Position numbers and translations under genes: made by a program. The notes under the pieces are model-generated. The model saw only the letters and a list, made by a program, of their open reading frames with translations, was not told the DNA's origin and did no database searches. A stretch of DNA of 64,000 nucleotides from Mobula hypostoma (lineage: Eukaryota): positions 28,398,001 to 28,462,000 of the forward strand of contig NC_086108.1 of the NCBI RefSeq assembly GCF_963921235.1, read 5' to 3'. Numbering within the stretch: the stretch's first letter is position 1; each line of letters begins with the position of its first letter. Positions 6,185 to 59,211 of this stretch are shown here, one piece after another.

Positions 6185-6390
6185 GACCTCACCACCCAAC
6201 ACCTTTTCCTCCTCACCTGGTCTCACCTATCACCTGCCAGCTTGTACTCCTTCCCTACCCCCCACCTTCTTACTATGGCTCCCCCCCACTTCCTTTTCAG
6301 TCCTGATGAAGCATCTTGGTGACTGTTTATTTCCCTCCATAAATGCTGCCTAACTTTGCTGAGTTCCTCCAGTACTTTGTTTTGCTTTAA
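6185..6390 (+). mobile_element. Penelope-like element 3' pseudo-LTR remnant with broken hammerhead
   Basis: cacctatcacctgccagc...cagtcctgatgaag...gactgt...atgctgcct...gctgagttcctccag, homologous to other PLE ends in the window; the GAAA arm of the ribozyme is deleted. Confidence 0.7.
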
Positions 6391-6774
6391 ATATTGCTCA
6401 TAATGAATGGTGAAACTACATGATATTGTGCAACTGAAACTAGGCAAGAATAACAGCCTTCTTTGATGGAGCAGACACTGTTAATTAAAATACAGGAGAT
6501 CTGATTCTAAAAATCTCTGGATTAAAAGTCAGTCAGCAGAGAAAGAACAACACTTGTCACTGAGCTTAAAAAAGGCTACTCAAAAATTGGATGTGTCAAT
6601 TTTCTCTTTCCCTGATAATTGCCACGGGTAAGTGTCAGTTCCAAAGGGGCCTGGGCTTCCATCAGCTATGATAGCAACAAGCATGCGGAGTGGCAACCCC
6701 CGTTAAATAATTCTAAATCAAATCAAACTAATAGAAAGGAAAAAAACCCATAAATTTTGATCACTTTTAGGCAT

Positions 6775-7165
6775 GAGCAGACTAGGAAGTCATTTTCTGG
6801 AATGTAGGAGTAACTTGGAAGAGGTGTATAAGATCTTGAGGGATATAAACACATGAAAGTACATGGTCTTTTCTCCAGGGAACAAATGCTAAATACGAGA
6901 GGAGCACTGGGTTTAAGATCAGAGAAGAGAGATTTAAAAGGGGCTTCAGGGGAGGCTTCTTCATGCAAACGATGGTGTATTTTTGGAATGAGCTGCCAGG
7001 TCAAGGAATAAGGCGGGTGTATTAGCAACATTTAAAAGCAATCTGAATAAGTACAGGAATAGGAGCTGGTTAGATGGCTATGGGGCAAACACGGGTAGAG
7101 GAGCCTAACACAGCTGACATGGACGAGTTAACTGAAGAGACCATTTCTATGCGATATGATTATGC
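6775..7165 (+). mobile_element. Old CR1 3' fragment
   Basis: gggtttaagatcagagaagagagatttaaa...ttcttcatgcaaacgatggtg...tggaatgagctgccag resembles the CR1 ORF2 C-terminus and 3' UTR. Confidence 0.7.
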
Positions 7166-8172
7166 CTTTATACCAGAAAGAAGTGCCCCACTGATGTCGA
7201 AATCTCTTTAGTATATATTTAGACTCTACCATGTAATGCTTTCACACACGTTAGTGTGTCACGTTGAGATGCTCGTCTGTTCCACGTGGTACAGAGATGT
7301 AGGGTGAAAAAATGCTCACTGTCACTATAGTTCACCAATATACAGTGTAGGCAGTGATCACATTGTACTTTCCATAGCAATGGAATGCACTATACTGTGT
7401 TTATGTAATGTAGTAGTAGTGTGAATATTTCTACACTGCATTGCTTGATGTAACTAACCTGCTATGCAGAGGAGAAGTCAATATCTCAGAATCAGGTTCA
7501 TTGTCACCGGCATGTGACATGAAATTTGTTAACTTAGCAGCAGCAGTTCAATGCAATACATAAATAGAAGAAAAAAAATAAAATTAATAATAATAAATGG
7601 ATAAGTAAATCAATTATGGTATATGTATATTGAATAGATTAAAAATTGTGCAAAAAACAGAAATGCCGTTTATTAAAAAAGTGAGGTAGTGTCCAAGGGT
7701 TCAATGTCCATTTAGAAATCGGATGGCATTTCAGAAGGGAAGAAGCTGTTCCTGAATCGCTGAGTGTGTGCCTTCAGGCTTCTGTACCTCCTACCTGATG
7801 GTAACAGTGAGAAAAGGGCATGCCCTGGTTGCTGGAAGTCCTTGATAATGGACGCTGCCTTTCTGAGACACCGCTCCTTGAAGATGTCCTGGGTACTTTG
7901 CAGGCTAGTACCCAAGATGGAGCCGACTAAGTTTACAACCCTTTGCAGCTTCTTTTGGTCCTGTGCAGTAGCCCTCCCCCACACCAGACAGTGATGCAGC
8001 CTGTCAGAATGCTCTCCACGGTACAACTATAGAAGTTTTTAATGTATTTGTTGACATGCCAAATCTCTTCAAACTCCTAATGAAGTATAGCCACTGTCTT
8101 GCCTTCTTTATAACTGCAGCGATATGTTGGGATCAGGTTAGATCCTCAGAGATCTTGACACCCAGGAACTTG

Positions 8173-8963
8173 TGAGGCCTTATCCGCTCGTCCATCCCCA
8201 CTGATGTTCCCTTTCCGCACGTCCATCCCCACTGATCTCCAACCTGGCACTTATCCCTGTAAGCGTAAGTGCTGCACCTGTCCCTACATCTCATCTCTTG
8301 CAATCATTTGGGGCCCCAAACAGTCCTTCCAGGTGAGGCAACACTTCACTTGTGAGTCTGTTGGGATCATCTATTGCATCCGTTGCTCCCGGTGCGGCCT
8401 CCTCTACATCGGTGAAACCGGATGTAGATTGGGGGACCGCTTCGTCGAGCACCTCCACTCCATCCGCCACAACAGACAGGATCTCCCGGTAGCCACCCAC
8501 TTCAACTCTGCTTCCCATTCCCATTCAGATATGCCCATACATGGCCTCCTCTACTGCCATGATGAGGCTAAACTCAGGTTGGAGGAGCAACACCTCATAT
8601 ACCGTCTAGGTAGTCTCCAACCCCTTGGTATGAACATAGAATTCTCCAACTTCCGGTAATTCCCTCCCTCTCCCTTCCTCTATCCCTATTTCACTCCACC
8701 CCCTCCCCCAGCTCCCTCATGGTTCCGCCTCCTTCTTCTACTACCCATTGTTTTCAGGACTATGGCGTCAATGGTACCTCTCCCCCACCCCTTGTCTTTC
8801 AAATTACTGGACTTTCAACTGAAGCTACAAGCATTCTTCAAATCCTTCCCCTTCAAATTCTTTCACTCTTCAGTCCTGACGAAGGGTTCCGGCCCGAAAC
8901 ATCGACTCATCATTTCTAACTGATGCTGCCCGACCTGCTGAGTTTATTCAGTACGAAAGTGTT
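8173..8963 (+). mobile_element. 5'-truncated Penelope-like (Neptune-type) retroelement: GIY-YIG endonuclease, pseudo-LTR and hammerhead
   Basis: ORF 8204-8659: Cys-rich linker PCKRKCCTC, GIIYCIRCSRCGLLYIGET (GIY-YIG), RFVEH, HFN, EQHLIYRLGSLQPLGMN. 13-bp TSD acccaggaacttg at 8160-8172 and 8964-8976. Confidence 0.9.
8872..8907 (+). ncRNA. Minimal type I hammerhead ribozyme motif (PLE-associated)
   Basis: agtc-CTGACGA-a-ggg ttccgg ccc-GAAA-c-ATC-gact: stem I agtc/gact, stem II ggg/ccc, conserved core. Stem III reads ACAU instead of palindromic ACGU. Confidence 0.65.
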
Positions 8964-9699
8964 ACCCAGGAACTTGAAGCTGCTCACTCTCTCCACTTCT
9001 GATCCCTCTATGAGGATTGGTATGTGTTCCTTCATCTTACACTTCCTGAAGTCCACAATCAGCTCTTTCGTCTTACTGATGTTGAGTGCCAGGTTGTTGC
9101 TGCAACACCACTCCACAAGTTGACATATCTCACTCCTGTACGACCTCTCATCACCACCAGAGATTCTACCAACAATAGTTGTATAGTCAGCAAATTTATA
9201 GATGGTACTTAAGCTATGCCTAGCCACACAATCATGGGTTCATTTGTATAATGAAGCGTCAAGCAGGCAATGGCCAATGATTTGGTTATATCATGGCACA
9301 ATGTGTTTGATAATCATATAATGCATCAATATACCATGTCTTGGAATGACTGATGTCATCATATTCAATGCACAACATCAGTATAGCATATTAATATACT
9401 GCACCATAGAGTCCTCAATGTCCTTAAACTATAGTAATATACTGTGGTCATTTAATGCTTAATGTCTCTGGAGTAAATTAATTTACTCTTATGTGCAAGC
9501 TCATAGTCCCAAAAGTACTTTAACAAAGCATGTCCCAGAACAATCAATGTCTTGATTGTACATTAATATACAGTGACACGGAGAGCTTGGTGTGCCTATA
9601 GCAGAATGAGGGACAGCCCCTGCAGGGAGGGTCAGACTGACAATTCAAATCATTTCTGAGAGCCACAGACACGAAACCTGTTTTGTTTTAATCACACAC

Positions 9700-11107: not shown

Positions 11108-11621
11108 CTCAGCAACACACATCAAAGTTGCTGGTGAATGCAGCAGGCCAGACAGCATCTCTAGAAGGAGGTACAGTTGACGTTTCAGGCCGAGACCCTT
11201 TGTCAGGACTAACTGAAGGAAGAGTGAGTAAGAGATTTGAAAATGGGCGGGGGAGGGGGAGATCCGAAATGATAGGAGAAGACAGGAGGGGGATGGATGG
11301 AGCCAAGAGCTGGACAGGTGATTGGCAAAGGAGATATGAGAGGATCATGGGACAGGAAGCCCAGGGAGAAAGAAAAGAGGTGGGGGGGGGGAAGCCCAGA
11401 GGATGAGCAAGGGGTATAGTGAGAGGGACAGAGGGAGAAAATGGAGAGTGAGAGAAAGAATGTGTGTATATAAATAACGGATGGGGTACGAGGGGGAGGT
11501 GGGTCATTAGCGGAAGTTAGAGAAGTCAATGTTCATGCCATCAGGTTGGAGGCTACCCAGATGGAATATAAGGTGTTTTTCCTCCAACTTGAGTGTCGCT
11601 TCATCTTTACAGTAGAGAGTT
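11108..11621 (-). mobile_element. Penelope-like element 3' end (last GIY-YIG codons and pseudo-LTR) with a hammerhead carrying a core G8->A change
   Basis: Closely similar to 12148-12650. Minus strand reads cagttagtcCTGACAAagggtctcggcctGAAAcgtcaactg (11174-11215). Flanked by agggttagg at 11099-11107 and 11622-11630. Confidence 0.85.
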
Positions 11622-12207
11622 AGGGTTAGGAAGTTGTCATGTAGATCTCTAAATAATTGTTAATTGTAAGACATGATGTTAGAAGCTTCTAACAGGTGCA
11701 CCACAGAGCTGTGTGCTTAGCCCCCTGCTCTACTTGCTTTACACCTTTGACTGTGTGGCAAAGTACAGCAACAATGCCATTTTCAGGTTTGCTGATGACC
11801 CCACTGTCATGGGCCAAATCAATGGTGGTGATGAATCAGCATACAGGACAGAGATTGAAAACCTGGCTGAGTGGTGTCATAACAACAACCTTTCGCTCAA
11901 TGTCAGCCAGACCAAGAAACTAATTATAGACCAGGAGAGGGAAACCAGAGGTCTATGAGACACTCCTCATCAGAGGATGAGGTGGAGAGTGATAGCAACC
12001 ATAGATTCCTGAGTGTTACTATTTCAGAGGACCTATTCTGGACCCAGCACTTAAGTGCAATTACAGAGAAAGCACGGCAGTGCCTTAACTTCCTTAGGAA
12101 TCTATGGAGATTTGGCATCACATCCAAAACATTGACAAAATTCAATAAACACACATCAAAGTTGCTGGTGAACGCAGCAGGCCAGGCAGCATCTCTAGGA
12201 AGAGGTA

Positions 12208-12248
12208 CAGTCGACGTTTCAGGCGAGACCCTTCGTCAGGACTAACTG
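12208..12248 (-). ncRNA. Minimal hammerhead ribozyme motif, intact core
   Basis: Minus strand: cagttagtc-CTGACGA-agggtctcgcct-GAAA-CGTC-gactg; palindromic ACGU stem III, GUC cleavage triplet. Confidence 0.75.
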
Positions 12249-13177
12249 AAGGAAGAGTGAGTAAGGGATTTGAAAGTTGGAGGGGGAGGGGGAGATCCAA
12301 AATGATAGGAGAAGACAGGAGGGGGAGGGATGGAGCCAAGAGCTGGACAGGTGATTGGCAAAAGGGATACGAGAGGATCATGGGACAGGAGGTCCGGGAA
12401 GAAAGACAGGGGGGGGGAACCCAGAGGATGGGCAAGGGGTATATTCAGAGGCACAGAGGGAGAAAAAGGAGAGTGAGAGAAAGAATGTGTATATAAAAAT
12501 AAGTAACAGATGGGGTACGGGGGGAGGTGGGGCATCAGCAGAAGTTAGAGAAGTCGATGTTCATGCCATCAGGTTGGAGGCTACCTAGACGGAATATAAG
12601 GTGTTGTTCCTCCAACTTGAGTGTGGCTTCATCTTTACGGTAGAGGAGGCCGTGGATAGACATGTCAGAATGGGAATGGAATGTGGAATTAGAATGTGTG
12701 GCCACTGGGAGATCCTGCTTTCTCTGGCGGACAGAGCGTAGATGTTCAGCAAAGCGGTCTCCCAGTCTGTGTGGGGTCTCGCCAATATATAAAAGGCCAC
12801 ACCGGGAGCACCGGACGCAGTATATCAACCCAGTCGACTCACAGGTGAAGTGTTGCCTCACCTGGAAGGACTGTTTGGGGCCCTGAATGGTGGTAAGGGA
12901 GGAAGTGTAAGGGCATGTGTAGCACTTTTATACACACATTCTTTCTCTCACTCTCCTTTTTCTCCCTCTGTCCCCCTGAATATACCCCTTGCCCATCCTC
13001 TGGGTTCCCCCCCCCCTTGTCTTTCTTCCCAGACCTCCTGTCCCATGGTCCTCTCGTATCCCTTTTGCCTATCACCTGTCCAGCTCTTGGCTCCATCCCT
13101 CCCCCTCCTGTCTTCTCCTATCATTTTGGATCTCCCCCTCCCCCTCCAACTTTCAAATCCCTTACACACTCTTCCTT

Positions 13178-13219
13178 CAGTTAGTCCTGACGAAGGGTCT
13201 CAGCCTGAAACGTCGACTG
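13178..13219 (+). ncRNA. Minimal hammerhead ribozyme motif, intact core
   Basis: cagttagtc-CTGACGA-agggtctcagcct-GAAA-CGTC-gactg. Confidence 0.75.
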
Positions 13220-14059
13220 CACCTCTTCCTAGAGATGCTGCCTGGCCTGCTGCGTTCACCAGCAACTTTTATGTGTGTTGCTTGAATTTCCAGCATCTGC
13301 AGAATTCCTGTTGTTTGCGACAAAATTCAATAGATGTGTAGTGGAGAGTATATTGATTGGTTGCATCACAGTCTGGTATGGAAATATCAATGCTTTTGAA
13401 TGAAAAATCCTACAAAAGGTAGTGGATTCAGTCCGGTCTATCACAAGTAGAGCACTCCCAACCATTGACTACATCTACATAAAATACTGTTGTAGGAAAG
13501 TAGCAACAATCATCAGAGATCCCCACTACCCAGGTCATACTTTTTTCTTCCTGCTGCCATCAGGTAGAAGGTACAGGAGCCTTAGGACTCACACCAGACA
13601 GTTCAAGAACAGTTACTACCCCTCAACCATAGGCTCTTGAATAAAAGGGGATAACTACACTCCCTTGCCCCAACAGTGAAATGTTCCCACAACTAATGAT
13701 CTCACTTCTAAGGTTTTTTAATTTCATTATCTCATAATCTTGTTATTGCTATTTATTTATATTTGCATTTGCACAGCTGGCTGATCATTCATTGCTCTTG
13801 TTATAGTTAATATTCTATAAGTTTGCTGAGTAGGCCCACAGGAAGATGAATCTCAGGGTTGTATATGGTGACATATACATACAGTACATACTTCGATACA
13901 AATTTACTTTGAACTTTTGAACTTTTTAATTGGAGGGCACTTGATGTTAGTGGTTTCTGATCATGCTGTAGAGTCATAGAATCATAGTATTGAAACAGGT
14001 CCTTCCAACCAAGTCTACACAGACCATCGACCATCCATTAATACTAAATGTACACTAAA

Positions 14060-21315: not shown

Positions 21316-21415
21316 TGCGCTAGGTCCTCATGACACAACATCCCACATTATGTAATAAACGTACTGAAATATCTTTATTATGTAGCAGGCCAGGCAGCAT
21401 CTCTAGGAAGAAGTG

Positions 21416-21457
21416 CAGTCGACGTTTCAGGCCGAGACCCTTCGTCAGGACTAACTG
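21416..21457 (-). ncRNA. Minimal hammerhead ribozyme motif, intact core
   Basis: Minus strand: cagttagtc-CTGACGA-agggtctcggcct-GAAA-CGTC-gactg. Confidence 0.75.
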
Positions 21458-21811
21458 AAGGAAGAGTGAGTAAGGAAGGCTCCAACCTGATGGCATGAAC
21501 ATCGACTTCTCTAACTTCCGCTAATGCCCCACCTCCCCCTCGTACCCCATCTGTTACTTATTTTTATACACACATTCTTTCTCTCACCCTCCTTTTTCTC
21601 CCTCTGTCCCTCTGAATATACCTCTTGCCCATCCTCTGGGTCCCCCCCCCTTGTCTTTCTTCCCAGACCTCCTGTCCCATGATCCTCTCGTATCCCTTTT
21701 GCCTATCACCTGTCCAGCTCTTGGCTCCATCCGTCCCCCTCCTGTCTTCTCCTATCATTTTGGATCTCCCCCTCCCCCTCCAACTTTCAAATCCCTTACT
21801 CACTCTTCCTT

Positions 21812-21853
21812 CAGTTAGTCCTGACGAAGGGTCTCGGCCTGAAATGTCGACTG
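21812..21853 (+). ncRNA. Minimal hammerhead ribozyme motif (stem III C->T)
   Basis: cagttagtc-CTGACGA-agggtctcggcct-GAAA-TGTC-gactg. Confidence 0.65.
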
Positions 21854-21999
21854 TTCCTCTTCCTAGAGATGCTGCCTGGCCTGCTGCGTTCACCAGCAAC
21901 TTTGATGTGTGTTGCTTGAATTTCCAGCATCTGCAGAATTCCCGTTGTTTGCATCTTTATTATGTGTTGTGTTTGATGTTTAAATTGTTCATAAATATG

Positions 22000-25035: not shown

Positions 25036-25322
25036 AGTTATTTATTTATTGAGATACAGCTCAGAGTAGGCTCTTCCGGCCCTTGAAGCTGCAAAGCCCA
25101 GCAACACACAATTTAACCCTTGCTGAATCATGTGACAATCTACAATGACCAATTAACCTACCAACCGGTATGTCTTTGGACTGTGGAAGGAAACCAGAGC
25201 TCCCAGAAGAATTCCATGGAGTCATGGGGAGGATGTACAACCTCCTTGCGGACCGTAGCGGGAATTGAACCTGGGATGCTGGTACTGTAAAGCATGGTGC
25301 TAACCACTATGCGACTATGCCA
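25036..25322 (-). mobile_element. V-SINE (HE1-like)
   Basis: Reverse complement of the family at 37228, 40501 and 42271; (TTAT)n tail at the left end. Confidence 0.8.
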
Positions 25323-25884
25323 GTATTTCAGGTCAAAGCCCTAATACAGATTTTTGACCCAAAATATCAACTATTTCCTTACCTCAAATGATGCTGCCTG
25401 ACCCACTGAGTTCCTACATCAGATTGTTATTCCTGAATATTATGCTATGGTTGAATGGAGAGCAATTTTTTTGAAGCCAAAAGCATTCCAAATCAAGAAT
25501 AAAAACCGTTCTCTCAGCATTATTTGAACACTTCATTGAATCTGGTTCTGACAGATTTTGATTCTGAAGACGTAAAGTAGACTGTACAAAATTAAGCAGA
25601 AGTGTCTGTGCTGAATTTGTCAAGCTTAAGGAAGCTGGTATCTATTTTACTAATATATGGTGTAGAGGAATTTTAAAAAGTCAGTGTGTTCTTTTTATGT
25701 TTGTGGTCAAGGATTGATTTGGTTGGGAGTGTTAGTGAATGGACGAGCCAAATAGAAGAATTGTTATTTTTTGCTTAGAATCACTGTAGTGTAAGATTCA
25801 GCATCCTATTTTGTCAATTCATCAAAGACACAGAAAGCACAATTTGATTTGCATGTAGATACAGCTGAACAATCAAGGATGTAT

Positions 25885-26493: not shown

Positions 26494-26764
26494 AACACAC
26501 ACAAAGTGCTGGAAGAACTCAGCAGGCTAGGCAGCATCTGTGGAAAAAAGTACAGTCGACATTCCGGGCCGAGACCCTTCAGCAGGAGTAAGTTGATGTT
26601 TCTGGCTGAGACCCATCAGCAGATCCTTCAGTCCTGCTGAAGGATCTTGGACTGAAACGTCGATCGTACAGTATTCTTTTCCACAGTTGCCTGGCCTGCT
26701 GAGTTCCTTCAGCATCTTGGCGTGTTGCTTGGATTTCCAGCATCTGCAGATTTTGTCTTCTTTG
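26494..26764. mobile_element. 271-bp non-coding PLE-derived fold-back element with three hammerhead-like motifs
   Basis: Inverted arms; 15-bp TSD tttcttcacctgaga (26479-26493) / tttcttcatctgaga (26765-26779). Motifs at 26553-26588(-), 26591-26623(-) and 26629-26665(+), all with CTGCTGA. Confidence 0.8.
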
Positions 26765-28690
26765 TTTCTTCATCTGAGAGATCTTCTCCTCAACACCCTT
26801 GTATATTCTATTATTTTTAATTTATGCTTAAATCATGCTGATTCTGTCCTCTTGTAATACGTGTTCAAAATTAGGAAGTAAATGTAATATATTAGCATCA
26901 TTTGTCCTTCTCAAACTTACGGTAAACCCAACAGTATTTAAATAAAGGATTTGCATTAATATGGGACCTCCTAACTTTCAGAACTTCCAAAGTGCTTTAG
27001 TGTATATTACTATTATAATGTAGAAGGCATCATCCTTCTAAATGTTGTTCTGCTTTGCACAAACAGTCCCATTATTCCTTTGCATTTAATACCATTCTTT
27101 TCAGGGTATGTCGAATAATTATCTCTCATGTTGCTTCTGATTTGCAGCCCCTCTTCTCCCTCTCTCAAAAACTCTTAATCTTCGCACAGCTGGAAATGGA
27201 TCTGATCTCCAGTGGAATGATTAGTATGTGGCACATCTGAAAGTATGAATATTGCAGAAATTGGGTTTATTGGTAAAAACATATTTTAATTACTTGTAGA
27301 TGCAGCCAGTGACTCAATGGTGAATTATGGAATGTTAAACTTTCAGATATCAAACACCCTTGATTTGAAACGAAAGTTGACTGACAGAAGTTGTCTTACT
27401 CATTGAGTCCCTCATGCTGACTTCAATTCAGGTCACCTTCTCCAACAGTACCGCCGGATACTCACCCTTTGATTTCATCTCTCTGTCCCACCACTAATAG
27501 AAGACCTTAAATGTTCTTTGGTTCCACTCCTTTGAAATCTATCCTTCATCAAACTTCCGTTCCTTTGAAAGGCTCCTAAAGCCCACTTCTTGATGATTTT
27601 GCAAATTCCTCCATTAGGGCTTATTGTCTGTTCCATTTTATCTAATCTATTATAAAGCATCTTCTTTTCTCCACTTAGCAGTTCTTATTTTAATCAGATT
27701 ACCCCTATGACTATACACTGACCTTAGTGGAATATTGAAGTAGTAATTCTACATGGCAATGAATGGTGTTATTTTGTATTGTTGTTTGTCCTTGGTTCAG
27801 GACAGGCTGAGCTGAATGGTTAAAGTGTTAACACACTACCTTGACTTACTGGCATTGTTAAAAAAATCATGTTTCTTAGTGAGAGGGGAATTGTGATGGG
27901 ATAAAACAAACTGAGCCAGTTTATGGACACAAATAGTTGCAAGATCCAAACAAAGTTCCAGAATGTTTCAACGATAAATGAAGAAGTTACAACATATTTG
28001 ATCAACCAGGCTATCAGAACATATTTCATATATTCATGGAGACACAAGAAACCACAGATGCCACTGGAAGAACTCAGGTTTTTGATGCAAGGTCTTAAAC
28101 TGTGATGGAATTGGGTTTACTGACCGTGAAGTTCTAAACTCAAGCGAAGATCGTAAGCTCTATTGGATATAAATGGCCATGAGTATTCTCACTAAGGAGA
28201 GGTTACACTGCAGCCATCTACACTTCAAAGGCTAGGTTACTTCCCTGTTGATCCTGCACAGTGAGTTTAGCTACCAATAACCACGGTGGAGCAGTGGGTA
28301 TCCCCTCCCTACCAAGGAGGAGATACTTCTAGCTATCAAAGTACATTAAACACAGTTTTTATTTATTTTTAATTATTCACACTTAAATTTACATAAATGT
28401 ATTAAAACTCATTAAAAACTCACAGAAGTTTTCTATCTTATAAAAGATTTCTCAATTACAAATGATTTCTAAAACATAAAGTATTTTCAAAACACAGATA
28501 CAATTCCTATAAGCTAAAAGGGTACCAATGAGTTACAAATGAACAAGTCATCTGTTGCAGAAATCGAAGGCAGAGGAATGCACCCTGATTTTCTGTCAAT
28601 CACCTTGATTTTCCTTGACCATTCCAAACAAGCCTGATTGCTCGATTACATGTATACTTTTGGAAATAATTCTGAAAATGTGCAGTTTGT

Positions 28691-29124
28691 ATGATTGATG
28701 TTGGGTTGAGTTGTTTGCCGATCTTGACAGTTACTTGCAAATGTTTCATCACCGTACGAGGAGACAGCATCAAAGCTCTGTTAACGGTGGTGTGTCCTCT
28801 GAATGCTTGGCATTTATATACTCATCAGTTGACTGATTGGTCATCGTTACAGAAACTCAATTGTGATGTGGAGAGGAAATCTCATTGCTGATTGGTTGCA
28901 GGTGTTGTGGTCTGGAATTTGGCCCGCATTGGCTCATAAATAGGATCGAGGTCTACGTCACAATTGAGTTTCTGTAATGATGACCAATCAGCTGATGGTT
29001 ATATAAAGACCAAGTATTTGGAGAACACACCACAATTAATAGCACACTGATGATGCCTCCTCGGATGGTGAGGAAATGTTTGCAAGTAGATCACCAAGAT
29101 CACGGAACAACTCAATCCAATCAT
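28691..29124. mobile_element. Inverted pair of pseudo-LTRs from a second, unrelated Penelope family, with a hammerhead remnant on each strand
   Basis: Arms ~28691-28866 and ~28959-29124 are reverse complements. Plus strand: ca-CTGATGA-tgcctcctcggatggtgag-GAAA-tgtt-tgc (29042-29083); counterpart at 28737-28776(-). The spacer's minus strand encodes VDLDPIYEP, which resembles PLE ORF C-termini as I recall them. Confidence 0.7.
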
Positions 29125-29221
29125 TTATACCATTTTTTGCCACTTGTGTGACTTCACACATATGTGATTTTTTCAGGGACCTTTTCACAGAGATGATCTA
29201 AAAGCTTCTGGGGACAGATAT

Positions 29222-35404: not shown

Positions 35405-35600
35405 AAGTGTACAGATGCTGAAAATCTGAAATAAAGACAAAAGTGATGGAAAGCCTACAAAGCAACGTCTATGGAAATGGGAACAGTAAGCATTTTGGAT
35501 CAATGACCTTGCATCAGAACTGAGTCTAAAAATTTATTCAGCTTCCATCTCCACAGATATTGCCTGACCTGTTTGGTGTTTCAGGATTTTCACTTTTCTC
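35405..35600. mobile_element. Old PLE-derived palindromic remnant
   Basis: cagatgctgaaaatctgaaata...gaccttgcatcagaactg (decayed minus-strand hammerhead)...ctccacagatattgcctgacctg. Confidence 0.55.
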
Positions 35601-36239: not shown

Positions 36240-36420
36240 GACTGAAATCAGAAAATGCTAGAGATACTGTACACTATAGGGCAGGCAGCATCTCTGAACA
36301 GAGAGGAAAAGATTCAATGACCTTTCTTTATCCACAGATGCTATCTAACTGCCAAACATTTCCAGCAGCCTCTGTGTTTTTTTAATTTCAGATTTCTAGT
36401 ATCTGCAGTACTTTGCTTTG
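36240..36420. mobile_element. Old PLE-derived palindromic remnant
   Basis: gaaaatgctagagatact...caggcagcatctctg / cacagatgctatct...tccagcag...ttcagatttctagtatctgcagta. Confidence 0.55.
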
Positions 36421-42563: not shown

Positions 42564-42564
42564 A

Positions 42565-43880: not shown

Positions 43881-43884
43881 CGTA

Positions 43885-47050: not shown

Positions 47051-47689
47051 GTTTTGAATCAACCTCTGTATCTTCAGCCTCTGTTGTGAATGAGTTGTGA
47101 GACCCAGGTTTAACTCTGACCTGTAACACTGGAGCACTTGCCACATATCTTTGCCATAAAAGTTTGATGGCAATAACACACAGCCAGAAAACTGATATGT
47201 CCAGCAAACATCATACTCTTCCAGTTTCTTCAGGCTGTTTAAGCATGTGTTTGAAGTTTGCAGCTGTGTAGGTCTATGACAATGTGGAACAGGATATTTG
47301 AAAGTCAGAAGTTCTAAGTGTTAAATGAGTGGCAAGGGGCGTGTTAAGTTGGAGTGTGTCAGTAGGTGTTACATGACATCTAAATATGAGACCTCTAACA
47401 TTGACCACATGAGTGGATCCGTTCCAAGGGACTTGATACTTGGCACTGTCTATTGCTGTTAGGTCGTCATGAGGCTGTGTCTGGAGGACCTCCTGGTTTG
47501 TATAAAGTACCTCTCCTTTCTTCTCCTGCTTTGAATATTGTGAACCATATCTGAAAAATATAGCAGCCTTCCCTGCCTCGATATATGCCATTCTTTAGTG
47601 TTTCCTCAGACAGTTTCGCTTGCTGCATGACTGCCAGCCACTGGCATCTCAGCATTATGTTTGTGCAAGTTAGCCTAAGCATTGCAGAC

Positions 47690-47910
47690 ATTAGAGAGTG
47701 CAGATGCTGGAATCTGGAGAAAGGCACAAAACTCAGCAGATCAGACAGCATCTATGGAGGTAGAAATAGGCAGTCGATATTTCAGGTCGGGAACCTTCAT
47801 CTGGACTGTAGAAGTTCAGATGAAGAGTGTCAGACCAAAACATCGACTATCCATTTACCTTTATAGATGCTGCCTGACCTTCTGAGTTCTTGCATGTCTT
47901 TGTGTGTTGA
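47690..47910. mobile_element. PLE-derived palindrome with back-to-back decayed hammerheads
   Basis: Minus 47771-47808 cagtcCAGATGAaggttcccgacctGAAAtatcgactg; plus 47813-47850 agttCAGATGAagagtgtcagaccaAAAcatcgact; inverted flanking arms. Confidence 0.7.
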
Positions 47911-48773: not shown

Positions 48774-49229
<456 letters not shown>

Positions 49230-50377
49230 TAGTAAATCCTTTCACTCCCATAAAATGTGGGAACTTCAAGGCAGAATGGGATAAAGATGCAGGTCGCTTG
49301 GAAGCTTCATGGCAGAATAGGATAATGATACAGTCCACTGAAAAAAGTTGCTATTTTTGGATTTTTTTCAACTATGTAAAATAAATCAAATTTGCAATTA
49401 TGGAAAAAAGTCATTGAAAATATCTGCGAACCTATTGCATCCAGTCTCATAAAAGCTGACCATATCATCTAAGGTCAATAGTGTTTATTATGCACACCCA
49501 CTATACCAGGAAGAAGGGTTCAAGGTTGTAGCCCTGTGCTAATGCAAAAGGAAAGGAGAGCAAATTAGGAGCTTGAAGACTATGTGCTGTCTTGCTGAAG
49601 AACCAGTGCTTAGTCCATGAAGTCCTGGAAGGGGAGATGACCTGCACAGTTCTACCCCAAAGCAGCAATGCCTGGCTCTTACAGATCACTCCTAACATGT
49701 TGAAGGACAGGAGGGTACAAGGTAAGAAAAACATGAAAACCTGGGTTCTACAGCTTACTTGAGGAGAACCATCTAATGGCCAGCTGGGAAGTAGTGAAGT
49801 GTTTTCAATCAGCAAATTACTACAATGTGGACTGAATATCTGATGTCTGAATTCGCAATCAAACTTTAGGCCCCAAACAAGAACTGCATTGTACCCTAAA
49901 CTGCAGATGCTGGAAATCTGCAATAAAAACTGTAAATATTATAAACATTCAGCGGGTTAACCAGTATCAGTTAACACAATGTCTGAAACCCATTGTCACA
50001 CTTCGGAATAAGATTTTTCAGTAATAAAGAAATTCAGAGAATGATGGATGATAGGTTGAGACTTTTATTTTATTTCCCAATCAAATAAGTCCTCATTATC
50101 ATCTATGGTTTTGAGTGTGGGCTGAAAATAGGAAATGCCATGAATATTAATAAGGTACATTTTATGTTTGACTGATCATTCAGTTTGAATGCATTCATGA
50201 TCCCTAATGTGGTCTATCTGATATTTGACTGATCATAAATGTATTCAATAATTTTCATAGCAAAGTCTATGAAGATTTGACATACATAGACCACATTACC
50301 TTATCTAGCATAACACCAGCATTTGCCAGGTGATACTGAGCAAATATTTATAGATGGAAATTGCAAATTTCTTTCAG

Positions 50378-50549
50378 GTTTGGTTCCAGAACAGAAGAGC
50401 TAAGGAGAAGCGCTTGAAGAAGGATGCTGGCAGACACCGATGGGGACAGTACTACAAGAACGTGAAAAGAAGCCGTGGTGGAACAAAGAGTGGGAAAGAG
50501 AGCTCAGTGGAGGATGCAGGCCTCAGTGACAGTGAGCTGAGTTTCAGAG
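50378..50549 (+). CDS. LHX4: LHX4 coding exon (exon 5 equivalent): homeodomain helix 3 and linker
   Basis: Acceptor tttcag|GTT, donor AGAG|gtgagt; 172 nt. Encodes [57 protein letters not shown]. Confidence 0.95.
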
Positions 50550-51184
50550 GTGAGTAAGCTAAACATGGTCAACATAGTTTAATAGCTTGGTAACCACTTG
50601 AGGAAATTAGCACATGAGCCTTCAAGAAAGAGTGTTAGTTATTCAGGTATTCAGTTGGACATCAGAGCTATTCTTTGCAGCTTTTACTAATCATGGCATT
50701 AAGGCTTTTTCAAACAATAGAAGAATTGTTGCAATGAGATCCCTGCCACTACATTGAGAAATCCTCAGATGTTCATTGGGTGGCTGTAAGAATCTATAGA
50801 AGCCGTGTCACACAGCCCAGGGAAAATTTCAGGCTCTACTGGTTTATCTTCTTGATACCCAAAGTCTTTCTACTGCCTCCAATTTGTGTGATGGCTTGAG
50901 CTCCCTTTAGCCAGAGAGCAGTGGCTGCAATGAGTTTCAAGGAACTCACCCCTAGCATGAAGAACTAGATTATTTGATCACTGTATCCAGAACTCATTTA
51001 TTCATTCCAGTCTTTAGTGTATTATCTATAGTGAATATGCGTTAGCATCTCATCAATTCTCAATGAAAAACATCTGACAAACCGGTCTGCACTGCAAACT
51101 GGAAGCACAGATTTACAAAGGCATATTTTCTCCTACTAATTTACATCACTTTAATATATAGTACAAATTGACCAAAAAATGAGA

Positions 51185-53582
51185 GACATAAAGTAATTCA
51201 GCACAGAAACAGGCCATTTGGCCTGTCTAGCCCATGCCAACCTGATTGTCTGCCTAGTCCCATCTACCACATAAATACCATATCTCTCCAACCCTTCTCA
51301 CCCATGTATCTATCCAATCTGTTTCAAATGAACCCACATCTATCACATCTGCTGGCAACTCATTCCACGTGAGCACCACGCTCCAATGGGAAAAAGCCTG
51401 TGTGGATTCACCCTATCTACAGCCCTCAAAATTTTGGTATGCATCTTTAGGGTGCATCACAACCTGGTATGGAAGTTGTCCTGTCCAAGACCGGAAGAAG
51501 CTGCAGAAGATTGTGAACACAGTGCAGCACATCACACAAAATCAATCTTCCGTCCTTGGACTCACTTTGCACTGCACGCTGTCGGAGCAGTGCTGCCAGG
51601 ATAATCAAGGACACGACCCATCCAGCCAACACACTTTTCGTCCCTCTTTCCTCCGGGAGAAGGCTCAGGAGCTTGAAGACTCGTATGGCCAGATTTGGGA
51701 ACAGCTTCTTTCCAACTGTGATAAGACTGCTGAACAGATCCTGACTGGGATCTGGGCCGTACCCTCCAAATATCCGCACCTGCCTCTCGGTTTTTTTGCA
51801 TACCTTACTTTCCCTTTTCTATTTTCTATTTATCATTTATAATTTAAGTTTTTAATATTTACCATCGATTTGTACTCCAGGGAGTGCGAAGCGCAGAATC
51901 AAATATCGCTGTGATGATTGTACACTCTAGTATCAATTGTTTGGTGACAATAAAGTGTAAAGTATAAAGTATAATATCTCCCCTCATCTCCTGTGCTCCA
52001 AGGAATAAGGTCGTAACCAATTCAAATCTTTCCCTATAACTCAGGTCCTCAAGTTCTGGCACCATCCTTATGAATTTTCTCTGCACTTTTTCCTTTTTTT
52101 TCAAATCTTTCTTGAAGGTAGGTGACCATAGCTGCACATAATAATGTAAATTCAGCCTCATGAACATCATGTACATCTTCAACATAACATCCCAACTCCT
52201 GCACTTGGTGACCTGAGTTATAAAAGTCAGTGTGCCAAAAGCTCTCCTTATGACCCTATCTACCTGTGGTGCTAATTTCAAGGAATTGTTGATCTCTATT
52301 CCTAGATCTCTCTGCACACCTCAGTGTCCTACAGTTCACTAAGTCTTAGCCTCACTTGTCCTCCCAAAGTGCAAACCTTGTACTGTCTGTGTTGAATTCC
52401 ATCTGCCATATTTCAGCCCTTTTCCCCAGCTGGTCAAGATCACACTGCAAGCTTCCTTGCTGACCCCTATACTCCCAATCTTGGTGTCATCCACAAATTT
52501 GCTGATCCAGTTTACCATATAATCATTAACAGATGATAGACAACGATGGACTCAGCACCGATCCCTGCACCACACCAAGAGCCACAGGCCTCCATTCAGA
52601 GAGACAACCATTTGCTACCAAATTCTGGCTTCTCCCACTAAGCCAATATTGGGTCTAAATGGCTACTTCATCCTAATTACCAAGAGATATATCCTTTTAG
52701 GCCAGCCTCCCATGCGGGACTTTGTCAATGCCTTGCTATAGTCCATGTAGACAAGGTCCACTGCCTTCATAAACTTTAGTAATCTCCCCAAAAATCTCTT
52801 TAGACATGATCCTCCATGTACAAAACTATGTTGACTATCCCTAATCAAGCCCTGTCTATCCAAATATTTATGTATCCTGTCCATTAGAATAGCTTCCAAT
52901 AATACAGTATCACAACTGATGTAGGATCACAGGACTATAATGTCCTGACTTATTTTTAGAGCCTTTCTTAAACTCCTGTCCTCCAGCACCTCACCAATGG
53001 CTAAGGACATTTTCAGTATCTCTGCCAGGACCCCTACAATTTCTGTACTGGCTTCCCACAATGTCCGATAGAACACCTTGTCAGGCCCTAGGTATTTATC
53101 GACTCTAATTTGCCTTAAGACAGTCTCCTCTTCCATCAACTGGATATGATCCATGACCTCACTACTCTTTTTTTCCTCAATTCTACACTGTCCATGTTAT
53201 CTCCCAAGTAAGTGCAGATGTGAAAAAAATAATTTACAATCTCCCCTATGTCTTTCAGCTCCATGCACAAATATCCTCTCTAATCTTCAAAAGGACCAAT
53301 GTTGTTCCTTGCTAACCTTTTGCTCTTAATATAGTTATAAAAGCCCTTGGGATCTCTTTCACCTTGTCTGCCAGAGCAACCACATGACCTCTTTTAGCAC
53401 TCTTGATTTCTCTCTTCAAGTGTTCTCTTGCACTTTTCTTACTCCTCAAGTGCCTCATTTGATCCTAGCTCCCTATACCTGATGTATACCAACCAATTTT
53501 TCTTTACCAGGGCCTCAAAATCCCACGATAACCAGGGTTCCCTAAACCTGTTAGTCTTGCCTTTTATTCTAACAGAAACATC
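51185..53582 (-). mobile_element. Decayed CR1 LINE, split by a Rex1 fragment at ~51436-51972
   Basis: FREPWL, VDKYLGPDKVF, SQHSFVHGGSCL, VYMDYSKA, QRDLG and YYVQLWSP pieces; 3' tail at ~51185-51250. Confidence 0.82.
51436..51972 (+). mobile_element. Rex1/Babar 3' fragment
   Basis: GCITTWYGSC..DRKKLQKIV, IIKDTTHPANTLFVPLSSGRRLRSLKTR..RFGNSFFPTVIRLLN; (taaagta)n tail. Confidence 0.85.
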
Positions 53583-53675
53583 CAGAATTGACCTAGCTAA
53601 GAAACTGGTTAAGTACCAGGACAGGGACAGAAGTAGAACACCATTGTTTAAGAGAGAATAAATAGAACCATAGAC

Positions 53676-54051
53676 CATCATCATCATCATCATGTGCCAT
53701 GTCATATGATGTAGATGATCATGGTTTTATGACCATGATTGCTCTTGGCAAATTTTTCTACAGAAATGGTTTGTCAATGCCTTCTTCTGGGTAGTGTCTT
53801 TACAAGATGGTTGACTCCAGCCATTGTTAATACTCTTCAAAGGTTGTCTGCCTGCCACCAGAGGTTGCATTACCAAGACTTGTGATATGCACCAGCTGTT
53901 TATAGACCATGCTGCCATATTTTCATGTGGCCCTGATCAAGAGGATAAGCTGGTGACATACCTTGCCCAAGGGTGACCTGCAGTCTAGCAGAGAGACTGC
54001 AGAGCGCCTTACACCTCCTTGGTAGAGACGTATCTCCACCCCACCACCCAC
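53676..54051 (-). mobile_element. SINE-like element with RTE-type 3' end and (ATG)n tail
   Basis: (cat)n at 53676-53694; the minus strand gaagaaggcattgacaaaccatttctgtag resembles the 3' regions of RTE-mobilised SINEs. Confidence 0.55.
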
Positions 54052-54539
54052 TGGCTTGATATTAGTACTATGGAACCTCCTGGAATCCACAATTATGGTC
54101 GCAGTCCCAGGGCACAGAAAATAATAAGAGGATTAGGCAGAGTCATCTGGGATTTATGAAATGTTTTTGCAAATTTATCGGTATACTTTGAACTTGTAAT
54201 GATCAGAATCACATGACATTTGTTGTCTTTGTAGCAGCAGTACAATGTAATACATAATAGGGAAAAAGCTACAAATTACTGTAAGTATATATATATATAT
54301 AATAGTTAAGCTAAATAAACAGTGCAAAAGTAAAAATAAAGAAGTAGTGTAGCGTTCATAGTTTCAATGTCCATTCAGAAATTGAATTAGCAGATTTGAT
54401 CATGCAAGTCACTTTAATGTAGTGTTGTTAGTAAGGTGCCACAGGAGATACTGCTAAACAGAATTAGAGCGCTTTTTCTGCCGGGTATTATACTCATGTG
54501 GAATGTTAGTTTGTTAACAGACAGAAAACAAATCTGTAG

Positions 54540-54809
54540 GAACAAATACGCATGACACCAAGGCACCAGAGGAACTCATCAGGAAGCATCGGTGGAGGGA
54601 AATGAGAGTTGACATTTTGTTGAGCCCAGTCAAGCAGGAGAGGATAGATAGAGGGGAGGAAAAGGTAGAGGGAAGGGCTGGAGCAAGAGCTGACAGGTGA
54701 TAGCTGGGTCCAGGGAGTGATAGCAGATGAGGGAGAGAGGAGATCACTCAGCTGGATTCATCTATCATCTGTCAGCTCTTGCTACACCCCTTCACCTTTT
54801 TATACTAAA
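54540..54809. mobile_element. Old PLE pseudo-LTR inverted remnant
   Basis: agagctgacaggtgatag (minus arm) versus ctatcatctgtcagctct (plus arm); ggaactcatcagg..gcatc. Confidence 0.6.
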
Positions 54810-54811
54810 TA

Positions 54812-54880
54812 CAATACTGTGCACAAGTCTTAGGTACATATATATAACTAGGGGGTGCCTAAGATTTTTGCACAGTACTG
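54812..54880. mobile_element. 69-bp Tc1/mariner-type MITE
   Basis: TIRs caatactgtgcacaagtcttaggtac / gtgcctaagatttttgcacagtactg (~26 bp), with TA on both sides (54810-54811, 54881-54882). Confidence 0.8.
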
Positions 54881-55228
54881 TATACTGTTTACTCTGTAAG
54901 CTTCATGCAAGCAAGGAATTTTATTTCACCCTGATGTATATGAGAATAAACTTATCTGAATCTAATAAGAATCCGAGTCTGTTTACATCGAGCAATATTA
55001 GACAGCAGAGTTTAGTCATATTGGCCTAAGAGAAATATGATGTGATTATACCTTAATATAAAACCTTAATTGCAAGAGTTATCTTAAAAAAGCAAGATTA
55101 TGCAGATTCGGGTTGTATTCCCTGGGATACAAATTAAAGAGATTATTTGATTGCCTTCCATGGTAGACTATTTTTCCCAGGTATGTTGTTGACAACAACT
55201 CTAATTTTTCTGCTTGTCATTGTTCCAG

Positions 55229-55614
55229 ATGATCAGATACTCTCTGAGCTAGGACATGCCAATGGGATATATAGCGGTGTGAGTGACGTGACTGGCCGGC
55301 AGTTACTGAATGGGGCCTTCACCGTGGATGTCACAGGACAGCAGTACCATGACCTGAGAGCAAGCAGCCCCTATGGAATACCCCAGTCTCCATCGTCCAT
55401 AGCCTCTGCCCCCGCACACACCCCACTTATGAACAACCTCGGTTATATTGACAATAACTTGGGACTTATAGCACAAGGAGGACAGGGAATGGGCCACGCC
55501 CTGAGAATGATGACAGGAGGTCCCACGTCTGATATCTCCACAGGTAGCAGTGCTGGTTACCCAGACTTTCCAACAAGTCCTGCCTCCTGGCTTGATGACA
55601 TGGACCGGTTTTAA
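55229..55614 (+). CDS. LHX4: LHX4 last coding exon: C-terminal region with LHX3/4-type tail
   Basis: Polypyrimidine tract and ttccag|AT; phase 1 fits the previous exon. Encodes (D)DQILSELGH...[12 protein letters not shown]...[32 protein letters not shown], then TAA at 55612-55614. Confidence 0.93.
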
Positions 55615-57994
55615 TGCGCCGTGAGGTTAGCCTGAGATGCAATGGAGATGTCCGAAAGAGGGCGAGCAGCCTCAAACACTGCAGGACTTCTGCAGGCAAG
55701 CGATGTATGTGTTTACAGCTTTGGTTTCCTCACCCTGTGGCAGTGAATTCAACTCAAATTTAGCACAGAGTTTCATGGACCAAAACCATTGGGTCTGAGA
55801 CAAGCACCCTTCTTGATGGGCCTTCCTGCTACGCCAGTGCTTGCGATTGACAACAGGACCACTTGGTGATGTGTCATTGGCTGAAATGTCAAAGTGATAG
55901 AAGCATGCAGGTGTGTGAGGGAGGAGGCACTTGTGCAATGGTCTAGTCATAAAGGGGACAATGAAACTTGAGATGGGCTTACTGGAGGGTGCATTTCACT
56001 ATAGCTAAACTTCAAATCTACAAACCTACAAGCAAAGGGACAAACTGTAGAGTTGGCCATAAACGCCACTGTAAAATAAGCAGTAGACACAAAAGCTCTG
56101 CCACACATATCTGACTTCAACATGGTATTTATGTTACTGAAGACATAAGTGGTGATACAGAGGCTAACCTCTCTTTCCTATCCCAATGTTATTGGATTGA
56201 CATTGAATGTGTGTGGCCCAGATGCAGATGGCGTTGCGACTGTGGTTGGGGTGGAGGGTGGAGGGGAGAAGGGTGGCAGGGGCAGGGCTTGACAAGGAGG
56301 TAAGAAGAACTCTAACCTTCCCACTCTTGCCAAGTTCACACCTCCTTAGGATCTCTTTCAATTGTTGTAGGAACAGCAGCTGGTCAATTCAGCCCAGTGA
56401 GTCAACTTTGGTTCCACATGCCCAATACATTAGGCTAACTAGATATGGGTTCTACTCCAGGTTGAAACTGTGAGAGAAACACAGAGCCAGTGATGCACAT
56501 TTAAGCCTGTGAGTCATAGCTGAAACATACTATGTTCAGCATCTAGCAGAATCTAGAACTCTCCCACGAACATTTCGAGATTTGTAAACTTCTAATTGTG
56601 AACACAGGCAAATTCAAATGACTGTGCATAGGTGTCCTGGTAATTGAACAAGTCCCATATAATTAGCAACTGTAGAAATAAGCCTCAAATAAAACAGCAG
56701 GCTGGAGACTGAGTTCTTAACCTGCTACTGAGTAACTGTCTCCATGTTGCCTCTCAGCTCCAGAAAAATCACCTACTTAAATCCATACAATACCCTTCAG
56801 CCTTGCCAGTCAAGTCTGAAACTTGTGGAAAGAGTCAGCCCTGTTCAAGTTTGCCACACATTTTTGTCCTGTGGCATACATATATATTTTTTTCCAGGTA
56901 CAACGAGAGCTTTATTAAACACTGTATTTTACGCAACTTGATTCTAGGTGGGGCTGTTGGAAGAATTTTCCCTTTGCGTATGTGCTATTTTAGGGAAAAG
57001 GATGGCAAATGCACTCCAGAACTTCTTTCTAAGTCTATTTTTTTTGTGAAACAGTTTTTTAATTTTTCCCTGATATATAAAAATGTATTGTGATACCAAG
57101 ACAATCTTCTACTGGCTTTGATACGACTCGTAATGAAGGTACACGCAACCTCACAAGTATAGAAGATGTGGAATGAATGTGAAAGGTCAGTTGCCCATTT
57201 ACTTTGGTTAAATCCTGACGGGTATGAACCAGTTTGCTTTGTAAAGCTATGTCTTATTTCAGGAATTGCACTGCGTTCCATTATTTTTTTTAATCCAGTT
57301 TGGAAATCCTACCCACATCCCTTTTAATCAATAATCCAACAATTCACTGGAAGCATAAAGCAGTTTAAGCAAAACATATTGCAAAGTAATTTCTCAGTTG
57401 TGTTAGCAACATGTGAAATTAATCCTGTATTCAGCAGAAAAAGACTGGCAATTGATGAACATTTTAGTGATTTTGCATTTGAAAGCGTTGTACTGAGGCA
57501 AGAGGTAGTAATTTGGTGCACAGGAGCCCATTATAAATTCTACACAAATGATGAGATATTTGATCCCCAGCCTAACACAGCAATCTGGTCCTCTGAAATT
57601 CTACATGATGGTGCACTATGACAAATGGTTTGGCCTCTTGAAGTGTTTTATTGGAACTTAAAATGATGGCAATAAACAATGTTATTCTGGCCCATTCTAC
57701 CTTGATTTAATATGAGTGAAGGGAATTTTTATGCTCTGCTCGCTTTTCTGAAGCTGAATTAACATCTGCAATTAAGATTGAAATTTGTCAAAAATTTGAT
57801 TTTTGTCCAGCACAAAAGGCACAAATGACACAGAGCTGACTGCAGGAAGACGCTGCTCGTCCAGGATGCTTTTGAACATGTGGTTTGTTTCGGTGATTCA
57901 CAGGTTTTTGCTAATACTGATTTGAGGATGAATCACAAAGATAAAATCTAAAGCCAATTGGCAGCCAATCTGCTTTCTCATGTTACAATGGAGT

Positions 57995-58315
57995 AATGCA
58001 ACTTGGAGACGGTCGTCAATCCACTACCTTACACCCACACACAGTGATCTATTAATCTAATCCTATACTAAGCATATTTTATTCTTCCCACAATCCCAGC
58101 AACTCACCCTCCACCCCCAGATTCTACCATTTACGTACACACTAGAGCTGATTACAATGGCTAATTAACCTACCAAACTGCATGTCCTTGGAATGAAGGA
58201 GATACTGGAGCACCCAGGGCAAACCTAGACAGTCACAGGCAGAAGTCCATGAAGACAATTTTGGAGGTCAGGATTGAACCTGGGTGGCTAGATCTGCAGG
58301 CAGCAATTCTGTTGC
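57995..58315 (-). mobile_element. Old V-SINE downstream of the LHX4 stop codon
   Basis: aattaacctaccaa...ctggagcacccagggcaaacc...aggattgaacctggg. Confidence 0.62.
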
Positions 58316-59119
58316 TGCCCCAATACTGATTTATAAATGCCCATGTGTAATGGTAACAATGAGGGAATCATGACCTTTTAGCAATATCAATAGATAAATA
58401 GTAATCAGTAATCAAAGCAGGATTGATACCACCCAGACAGACACTTCAAAGCCATACTCGTTGGATCTGAAATGAATTTGCGTTTGTTGTTGTCCACGCG
58501 CTTTGAAGTTTGCTTCTTTTATTTACTTCTGTTCACTCTCTGCACTCATGCACTTTGACTTCGCATCTAGTCAATGAACTTTTTCTTCACTGGTTTCTCT
58601 GACGTTAATGCCGGTGAGTTTTGGAAAAGTACTTCAAGATTTATAATCGTTTACTGAAAGCCTTAGTGTGGGCAGGGCATGGTCAATGTGTCTTGCAAAA
58701 TGAATGTGAAAACTGATAGCCATCATTTAATCTTATGTCATTGTAACTGCTCTGTAACTGGAGCTAAACTGGAAATTGAAATAGCACATTAAGCAGAAGA
58801 GCAATATTAAGCATTAGATCTTTTGTTCCACACTTTCTAGTCCCTCAGGGGGATTTTTTGTTTATTTCAACACAAATATAGTATGTTGAAGCAGTCACAT
58901 CATAAACATTCATGTGGAAATAGTGGTTATTGAAAATGAAGATCATAAGACCACAAGACAAAGGAGCAGAATTATGACGTTCGGCCCATCGAGTCTGTTC
59001 TGCCATTCCATCGTGGCTGATTTATTATCCCTCTCAACCCCATTCTCCTGCCTTCTCCCTGGAACCTTTGATGCGCTTACTAATTAGGAACTTACCAATC
59101 TCTGCTGAAAATATACCCA

Positions 59120-59211
59120 CAAACCTGAAACAGCCTGAAACATCGACTGTACTCTTTTCCAAAGATGCTGCCTGGCCTGCTGAGTTCCTCCAGCACTTTG
59201 TGCGTGTTGCT
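59120..59211 (+). mobile_element. Very short PLE 3' end nested in CR1 (half hammerhead)
   Basis: cctgaaacatcgactgtactc...gatgctgcctggcctgctgagttcctccagcactttgtgcgtgttgct; flanks tgctgaaaatatacc / tgctttaaatactacc look like a decayed TSD. Confidence 0.7.

Follow-up and report, generated by a model that had tools for sequence, protein, structure and literature searches.

What are the many small hammerhead ribozyme motifs that lie, mostly in inverted pairs, within a 64,000-nucleotide stretch of Mobula hypostoma DNA (contig NC_086108.1, positions 28,398,001 to 28,462,000; hereafter the window)? The preliminary description of this DNA derived them from Penelope-like elements (PLEs) and proposed that the shortest pairs form a non-autonomous, retrozyme-like family. 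Our analysis favours a simpler origin, to which we assign a probability of about 0.8: the units are independent 5'-truncated insertions of endonuclease-bearing (EN+) PLEs, and the fold-back was made at integration, not copied afterwards. In testable criteria they match the inverted inserts of EN+ PLEs, and as a kind of element they are ordinary.

Hammerhead copies in head-to-head units

A profile was built from 13 hammerhead copies of the window, and the best score among 20 shuffles (7.9 bits) was taken as the threshold. Twenty matches in the window exceeded it, comprising the 13 seeds and seven non-seeds. With two copies from an unrelated pair at 28.7-29.1 kb, the total comes to about 22 copies or remnants of a minimal hammerhead with its 3' tail, in line with the "more than a dozen" first noticed. 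Few are intact. Among 18 audited motifs the strict CUGAnGA...GAAA...UH core is kept in six and the palindromic ACGU stem III in three; three motifs are fully intact, with the core, stems I and II and the palindromic stem III of a minimal type I hammerhead. U12 (the 12 kb unit; other units are named likewise) is the only one with an intact hammerhead on both arms. An Rfam scan of the window returned nothing of hammerhead type at E<=1, its few matches being chance ones to microsatellites and hairpins below the gathering score, and the 3'-end motif had no match among viral contigs and none among metagenome contigs.

The core reads CUGCUGA in all three U26 hammerheads and CAGAUGA in both U47 hammerheads; these changes are therefore probably inherited from the source elements and not the result of later decay. 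In U28, CUGAUGA and GAAA are kept on the plus arm only.

Self-alignment recovered all five inverted pairs named at the outset, each with its arms head-to-head (Table 1). Arm identity is 350/361 in U12 (12138-12498 with 12926-13289), 88/92 in U21 (21384-21475 with 21794-21885), 78/93 in U26 (26491-26587 with 26632-26729), 144/176 in U28 (28689-28872 with 28952-29130) and 70/85 in U47 (47720-47807 with 47813-47901). Four more decayed pairs lie near 25.3, 35.5, 36.3 and 54.7 kb. The second arms of the 25.3 kb and 36.3 kb pairs score weakly, the plus arm of U36 falling under the shuffle maximum of the profile scan, and self-alignment returned no arms for the 35 and 36 kb pairs, which are identified by profile matches and arm mapping.

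Three of the units are each bracketed by a single target site duplication (TSD), as had been described: 14 bp, exact, in U12 (12134-12147 and 13319-13332); 13 bp, exact, in U21 (21371-21383 and 21953-21965); and 15 bp with one mismatch in U26 (26479/26765). Between two random 56-nt flanks, an exact repeat of at least 13 arose in 0.03% of trials. The TSD of U12 encodes TKFN in the same frame of a long interspersed nuclear element (LINE) on either side, so U12 is a single insertion. No TSD was found for U28, U35, U36 or U54, and none that is clear for U47.

The pairs might instead be separate insertions into or beside another copy, later trimmed by deletion, given the high copy density (about 22 in 64 kb) and the in vitro cleavage by a PLE protein of its own pseudo-long terminal repeat (pLTR; PMC11167929). 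In three units, however, a single TSD encloses the two arms together, with no sign of a second at the junction. Head-to-head pairs also exceed chance: six adjacent pairs within 950 nt were counted among 21 matches, against 1.46 expected at random placement (P=0.0003; the 950-nt cut-off was picked so as to include U12, and one tail-to-tail pair was also counted). The asymmetry of the tails is regular, and the arms of U26 share one unusual core, as do those of U47. We consider this origin very improbable.

The arms are 3' ends of Penelope-like elements

The 427-nt "spacer" of U12 is the minus arm running on into an open GIY-YIG endonuclease fragment, and the long arm of U21 begins within the last codons of the same GIY-YIG open reading frame (ORF). 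Each arm is therefore the 5'-truncated 3' end of a PLE. In both units the hammerhead lies about 335 nt downstream of the ORF stop. No PLE reverse transcriptase (RT) was identified in the window, where all copies are 5'-truncated, and an NCBIfam search of the window yielded nothing further. Among relatives of 816-927 aa, RT is followed by GIY-YIG in four of five scanned, with all scores below the Pfam cut-off except one RT. Among named proteins, those nearest to the element protein come from a stingray (80% identity) and a skate (64%), which makes a ray the most likely host.

The linker of the 8 kb copy reads CKRKCCTC, and the same motif occurs in the closest relative. A CX2-5CxxC linker motif before GIY-YIG marks the Neptune and Nematis clades (PMC8557442); by this motif, which is used here without separating the two clades, most copies are classed as putatively Neptune/Nematis-type. 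The hallmarks of EN+ PLEs are present, namely a CCHH GIY-YIG, a pLTR with a minimal hammerhead, and an inverted 5'-truncated copy with a one-sided tail and a TSD. The Penelope origin, minimal hammerheads, inverted pLTRs and single TSDs of the preliminary description are borne out.

Single-armed copies with flanking repeats of their own also occur. The 8 kb copy has an exact 13-bp TSD (8160-8172 and 8964-8976), and the 11.1-11.6 kb copy is flanked by a 9-bp repeat (Table 1); the fold-back is therefore not an obligatory unit. The 9-bp repeat resembles the vertebrate telomere repeat.

Table 1 Features of the window. Signed positions are relative to the predicted cleavage site (0) and accurate to about 1 nt; inner ends are given as minus arm/plus arm.
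Feature	Position	Strand	Inner ends	Details
U12, head-to-head insertion	12148..13318	both	-714/-286	inside decayed LINE ORF; 14-bp TSD
U12 long arm	12927->12148	-		GIY-YIG end, pLTR, hammerhead, no tail; -714 to +65
U12 short arm	12926->13318	+		pLTR, hammerhead, tail; -286 to +104
GIY-YIG endonuclease C-terminal fragment	12538..12927	-		open, 130 aa, CCHH type; Pfam GIY-YIG 23.1 bits, cut-off 22.6
Hammerhead motif, intact minimal type I	12207..12246	-		palindromic ACGU stem III; loop II one base short
Hammerhead motif, intact minimal type I	13180..13220	+		cleavage predicted after 13214
U21	21384..21952	both	-54/-368, plus 4 nt	arms separated by 4 extra nt; 13-bp TSD
U21 short arm	21475->21384	-		-54 to +37
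U21 long arm	21480->21952	+		GIY-YIG end, pLTR, hammerhead, tail; -368 to +104
U25, decayed copy with weak inverted remnant on left	25322..25430		turn about -20 (weak)	abuts another repeat
U26	26494..26764	both	-32 plus 36-nt tandem remnant/-41	minus arm -32 to +65; plus arm with tail, -41 to +103; 15-bp TSD
U26 tandem second hammerhead remnant, 36 nt	26588-26623			precedes minus arm in sense
U28, decayed inverted pair, unrelated family	28689..29130	both		hammerhead-like motif; 79-nt unpaired spacer
U35, decayed head-to-head pair	35405..35573	both	-31/+6	
U36, decayed head-to-head pair	36278..36420	both	about +3/+1	without hammerhead core
U47	47690..47910	both	-31/-31	5-nt spacer; tail on minus arm only
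U54, decayed pLTR-arm pair	54552..54800	both	-182/-145	plus arm shortened
Decayed single copy	6185..6390	+		pLTR end; hammerhead with GAAA segment deleted
Single-armed 5'-truncated copy, related subfamily	8173..8963	+		GIY-YIG with CX3CxxC linker, pLTR, hammerhead core
Single-armed 5'-truncated copy, U12/U21 family, 8-10% diverged	11108..11621	-		9-bp flanking repeat at 11099/11622
Short single copy	59125..59215	+		starts inside stem II (without CUGAnGA core); no tail
LHX4-like gene exons	41922-55614	+		LIM exon about 41.9 kb; homeodomain exons 48.8 and 50.4 kb

One-sided tails and the templates of the two arms

Both outer ends could be mapped in six pairs, and in each of these a tail, which extends to +87 to +104, is confined to a single arm. 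The tail-less arm ends near +65 in three pairs and at +34 to +37 in the other three (21384, 35571, 36278); a third preferred RT start site may explain the latter, two of which are old and weakly aligned.

We propose that insertion begins with nicking of both target strands, 13-15 bp apart, by the GIY-YIG endonuclease of the element. Such two-strand nicking is published for another PLE, the Anolis Poseidon element PAc, for which both target strands were cleaved and extended in vitro, RT started at two internal sites bounding the tail, and the hammerhead was dispensable for insertion (PMC11167929). These PAc properties can explain the one-sided tail here, although PAc belongs to another PLE clade and that study does not treat inverted inserts or their junctions. 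Each nick would then serve as primer for reverse transcription, which would begin at internal sites on the 3' side of the hammerhead; two such sites would leave a tail of about 40 nt on one arm and none on the other, and both arms would carry a hammerhead only because it lies about 65-105 nt upstream of them. Finally, two cDNAs, probably from two RNA molecules, would stop at variable points and be joined head-to-head. Termination about 30 nt upstream of the cleavage site is common among short arms and may reflect an RNA 5' end there or strong stalling of RT.

The arms of U12 differ at 9/351 sites, about as much as U12 differs from U21 (3.0-3.3%). Four of the nine differences are common family variants in the contigs described below, with shares of 0.76, 0.47, 0.29 and, at +6, 0.37, and the arms of U21 also differ at +6. 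These differences lean toward two RNA templates. Self-priming (snap-back) on one antisense transcript or cDNA, the model given for rotifer Penelopes in the discussion of PMC3846280, would equally produce head-to-head polarity and near-palindromic junctions such as -30/-30. A single template, however, would not give the four variant differences of U12 or that of U21, and both target strands were extended in vitro (PMC11167929). Self-priming is thus improbable, though the least so of the alternatives considered here, and it would change the mechanism only, leaving the units as by-products. How PLEs build inverted inserts is described as unresolved (PMC8557442). The genome appears to hold very many inverted PLE inserts, and their value lies in what they tell of how such inserts arise: a census of junctions and arm genotypes could separate two-RNA twin priming from one-RNA self-priming and explain the stop at -30.

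Junctions in the window and in public contigs

A non-autonomous family should share an internal junction, and the preliminary description had named unique junctions among the findings that would speak against its proposal. Inside the window, the junction differs in all nine mapped pairs (Table 1).

Contigs of four of 24 listed public runs (two DNA-type, two RNA-type) were aligned to U21 at 80% likeness. From the DNA-type runs 174,855 and 98,749 contigs aligned, the former to a 781-bp stretch. Summed contig depth in run X1, which serves for rough ratios only, was 2-14 million on the element (all but edge bins) versus 4-12 on the flanks. Reading this depth as copy number was rejected as not valid, but the family is evidently very large. 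A second, related organism also has both ends of U21, so this insertion predates the split.

The contigs contain 899 joints of all kinds. No two of the best 15 share a coordinate pair; none is supported by more than 14 contigs, and their summed depth in X1 falls smoothly (780, 404, 400, 302, 264). No joint among them stands out as a dominant amplified fold-back, which argues against a family amplified as a unit. A further 503 loose contig ends at 21480 continue into GIY-YIG sequence.

The turns cluster at the 5' base of stem I, a position about 30 nt upstream of the point of cleavage, and the hot spot is about 20 nt wide per arm. It is seen independently in the window, where U26, U35 and both U47 arms end at -31 or -32. 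An RNA 5' end and a strong RT stop are candidate causes. With so narrow a hot spot in a huge family, low-level recurrence of exact junctions is expected.

Several points weigh against independent insertion as the full account. All but one of the 15 best-supported joints connect a minus arm that ends at -19 to -43 with a plus arm whose end lies at -46 to +8. Single contigs cross some junctions at depth 260-400, versus 4-12 on the flanks, so some junction sequences exist in tens of copies, and some junctions occur in both organisms. The joint table is incomplete, and a very high-copy junction could be split into contigs too short to register; subfamilies less than 80% alike to U21 lie outside the contig sample. 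The sequence between the two sides is not known in 11 of the 15 joints, and the genome-wide hot spot may partly reflect the limits of alignability. The evidence for two templates comes from a handful of sites in U12 and U21; of the four in U12, one is a CpG and so open to repeated mutation.

These points bear on whether some short fold-backs (220-270 bp, turn near -30) might be transcribed and then copied again in their entirety by PLE enzymes acting in trans, giving low-copy non-autonomous palindromic families. Besides the recurrent junctions, of which the deepest reaches 780 over seven contigs, U47 turns at -31/-31 as the best-supported joints do, and the family is present in RNA-type contigs. 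Mobilisation in trans is reported to require no more than the pLTRs, and it was suggested that one inverted-pLTR copy gave rise to another (PMC3846280). Against re-copying, no junction dominates, recurrence is expected from the hot spot alone, and the window junctions all differ; with an arm identity of 82-84%, the short units are old and decayed, a perfect hairpin is predicted to hide the sense hammerhead and by inference would hide the RT start site, and segmental or carrier-element duplication could also yield extra copies. We regard re-copying as unlikely; the clustering at the hot spot and the low-level recurrence of exact junctions leave it a slim chance on a small scale. If some fold-backs are indeed re-copied as units, they would represent a new non-autonomous type of PLE.

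Two other accounts of the turns were rejected. Turning at the cleavage site is not the rule: in the window only U36 (+3/+1) turns there, while U35 has a single arm at +6, and one of the 15 listed joints has an end at +8. A spliced 5' exon between the arms was also discarded, since the longer inserts (12 of 424 rows) match upstream pLTR sequence. The U36 turn falls at the predicted cleavage site, a 6-bp palindrome in intact copies, where cleavage and microhomology are indistinguishable. One RNA-type contig of run X22 (depth 696) connects position -24 of a minus arm with +77 in a tail fragment (21445 to 21925); this joint is not among the rows of the other three runs.

The ribozyme within the fold-back

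The proposal that each unit would be transcribed as a long hairpin agrees with folding predictions for read-through transcripts (z relative to shuffles = -7.9 and -11.7 for the two shortest units). Any one transcript contains one sense hammerhead per arm pair, the other being antisense, and for this reason an intramolecular hammerhead dimer within the fold-back was rejected. On either strand the antisense copy is transcribed first. For the five named units, on both strands, the predicted fold pairs 76-100% of the hammerhead bases with sequence outside the motif and has no pairs within it. Minimal hammerheads of PLEs are believed to cleave weakly and to require a partner of the same sense (PMC4209133, PMC6765202). 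With the partner antisense and the motif bases predicted to pair elsewhere, the fold-back would sequester the ribozyme and supply no dimer partner; as modelled, the hairpin should switch the ribozyme off.

A unit transcribed within host pre-mRNA is accordingly pictured as a long duplex, which would more likely serve as a substrate of ADAR than act as a self-cleaving replicon. Both RNA-type runs contain the family in abundance. A>G differences were found at 34 and 35 places in these runs versus 15 and 15 in the DNA-type runs, a 2.3-fold excess (P about 0.002-0.003; U21 has 100 A), the runs being from other individuals and the RNA status of the RNA-type runs a guess. T>C differences showed no rise in the RNA-type runs. 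The A>G excess is a hint that fits A-to-I editing; a one-sided signal of this kind does not prove fold-back hairpins. Hyper-editing by ADAR of inverted or palindromic repeats, including Penelope in a lizard, has been described (PMC5625713), and the likeness lies in long, repeat-derived duplex RNA in pre-mRNA and the A>G excess. The difference is that here there is only the hint, from contigs of other individuals and with T>C not raised. Fold-backs may supply ADAR in rays with a large amount of intronic double-stranded RNA.

In its furthest form, the re-copying idea would place the 5' terminus of a separate hammerhead-plus-tail RNA, about 135 nt long, at the -30 hot spot, with two-arm fold-backs transcribed, A-to-I edited and re-copied whole by Neptune-type enzymes, as a palindromic non-autonomous PLE family distinct from tandem retrozymes. 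We think this doubtful. A literature search that left aside most subscription journals and supplements returned nothing on the -30 hot spot or on such a family; the supplements of PMC4209133 and PMC11167929 may bear on both.

Several subfamilies have a pyrimidine run ending in AG directly before stem I (8860-8875, 13165-13186, 6280-6302), which resembles a 3' splice site. In D. virilis, an intron end maps to the 5' end of helix I (PMC4209133).

Comparison with known systems

In retrozymes, units follow one another in tandem head-to-tail, and their ribozymes, all on one strand, release monomers and circles (PMC7229834, bioRxiv 10.64898/2026.07.22.740005). The non-LTR retrozymes of animals resemble the present units in being non-coding and PLE-related, with type I hammerheads and possibly long TSDs (same sources). 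The window copies differ in being head-to-head, mostly with broken hammerheads, and without a tandem array: no head-to-tail tandem units with complete hammerheads occur in the window, where the only same-strand tandem is the 36-nt broken duplicate in U26. Retrozymes are amplified as a unit with shared internal structure; here the window junctions differ in every pair and the contigs show low-level recurrence only. A non-autonomous retrozyme-like family is thus not upheld, in view of these junctions, the single arms with TSDs and the hammerhead sequestered in the predicted fold.

The closer match is with EN+ PLE insertions, for which an inverted pLTR, a one-sided 31-bp tail and a single TSD are published (PMC3846280, PMC8557442). 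Pen2a_Av, an EN+ PLE, likewise has an adjacent inverted 5'-truncated copy in head-to-head orientation, one TSD around the whole, a 30-40-bp tail on one arm and heavy 5' truncation (PMC3846280, PMC8557442). It differs in that copy number is very high here and in the TSDs, which are 13-15 bp here versus 8-10 bp in the rotifer. The turn hot spot at the 5' base of stem I was not found described in the accessible parts of these two papers.

The motifs themselves share with the minimal type I hammerheads of metazoan PLEs the CUGAnGA core, an extra base before stem II and the location in the pLTR, as well as palindromic positions 15.2-16.2 with no real helix III (PMC4209133). The same paper noted, in 2014, opposite-strand hammerhead pairs 100-700 bp apart in Schistosoma. 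The accessible parts of it mention neither cartilaginous fishes nor a CUGCUGA or CAGAUGA core.

Genomic setting

The window is repeat-rich vertebrate DNA, with the fold-back units lying within or near an LHX4-like gene. Introns of this gene hold U47 and U54. Its last exon is probably near 55.3 kb, as read from the translation, and no first LIM exon was found within the window. Decayed LINE RT fragments and an RT/RNase H fragment resembling that of an LTR retroelement lie at 2596-5085, 18733-19278, 30480-30965 and 51258-52320. Other dispersed repeats form inverted pairs 1-3 kb apart that are 78-91% complementary (23343-23644 with 25888-26181; 37238-42521), and these are further potential intronic duplexes.

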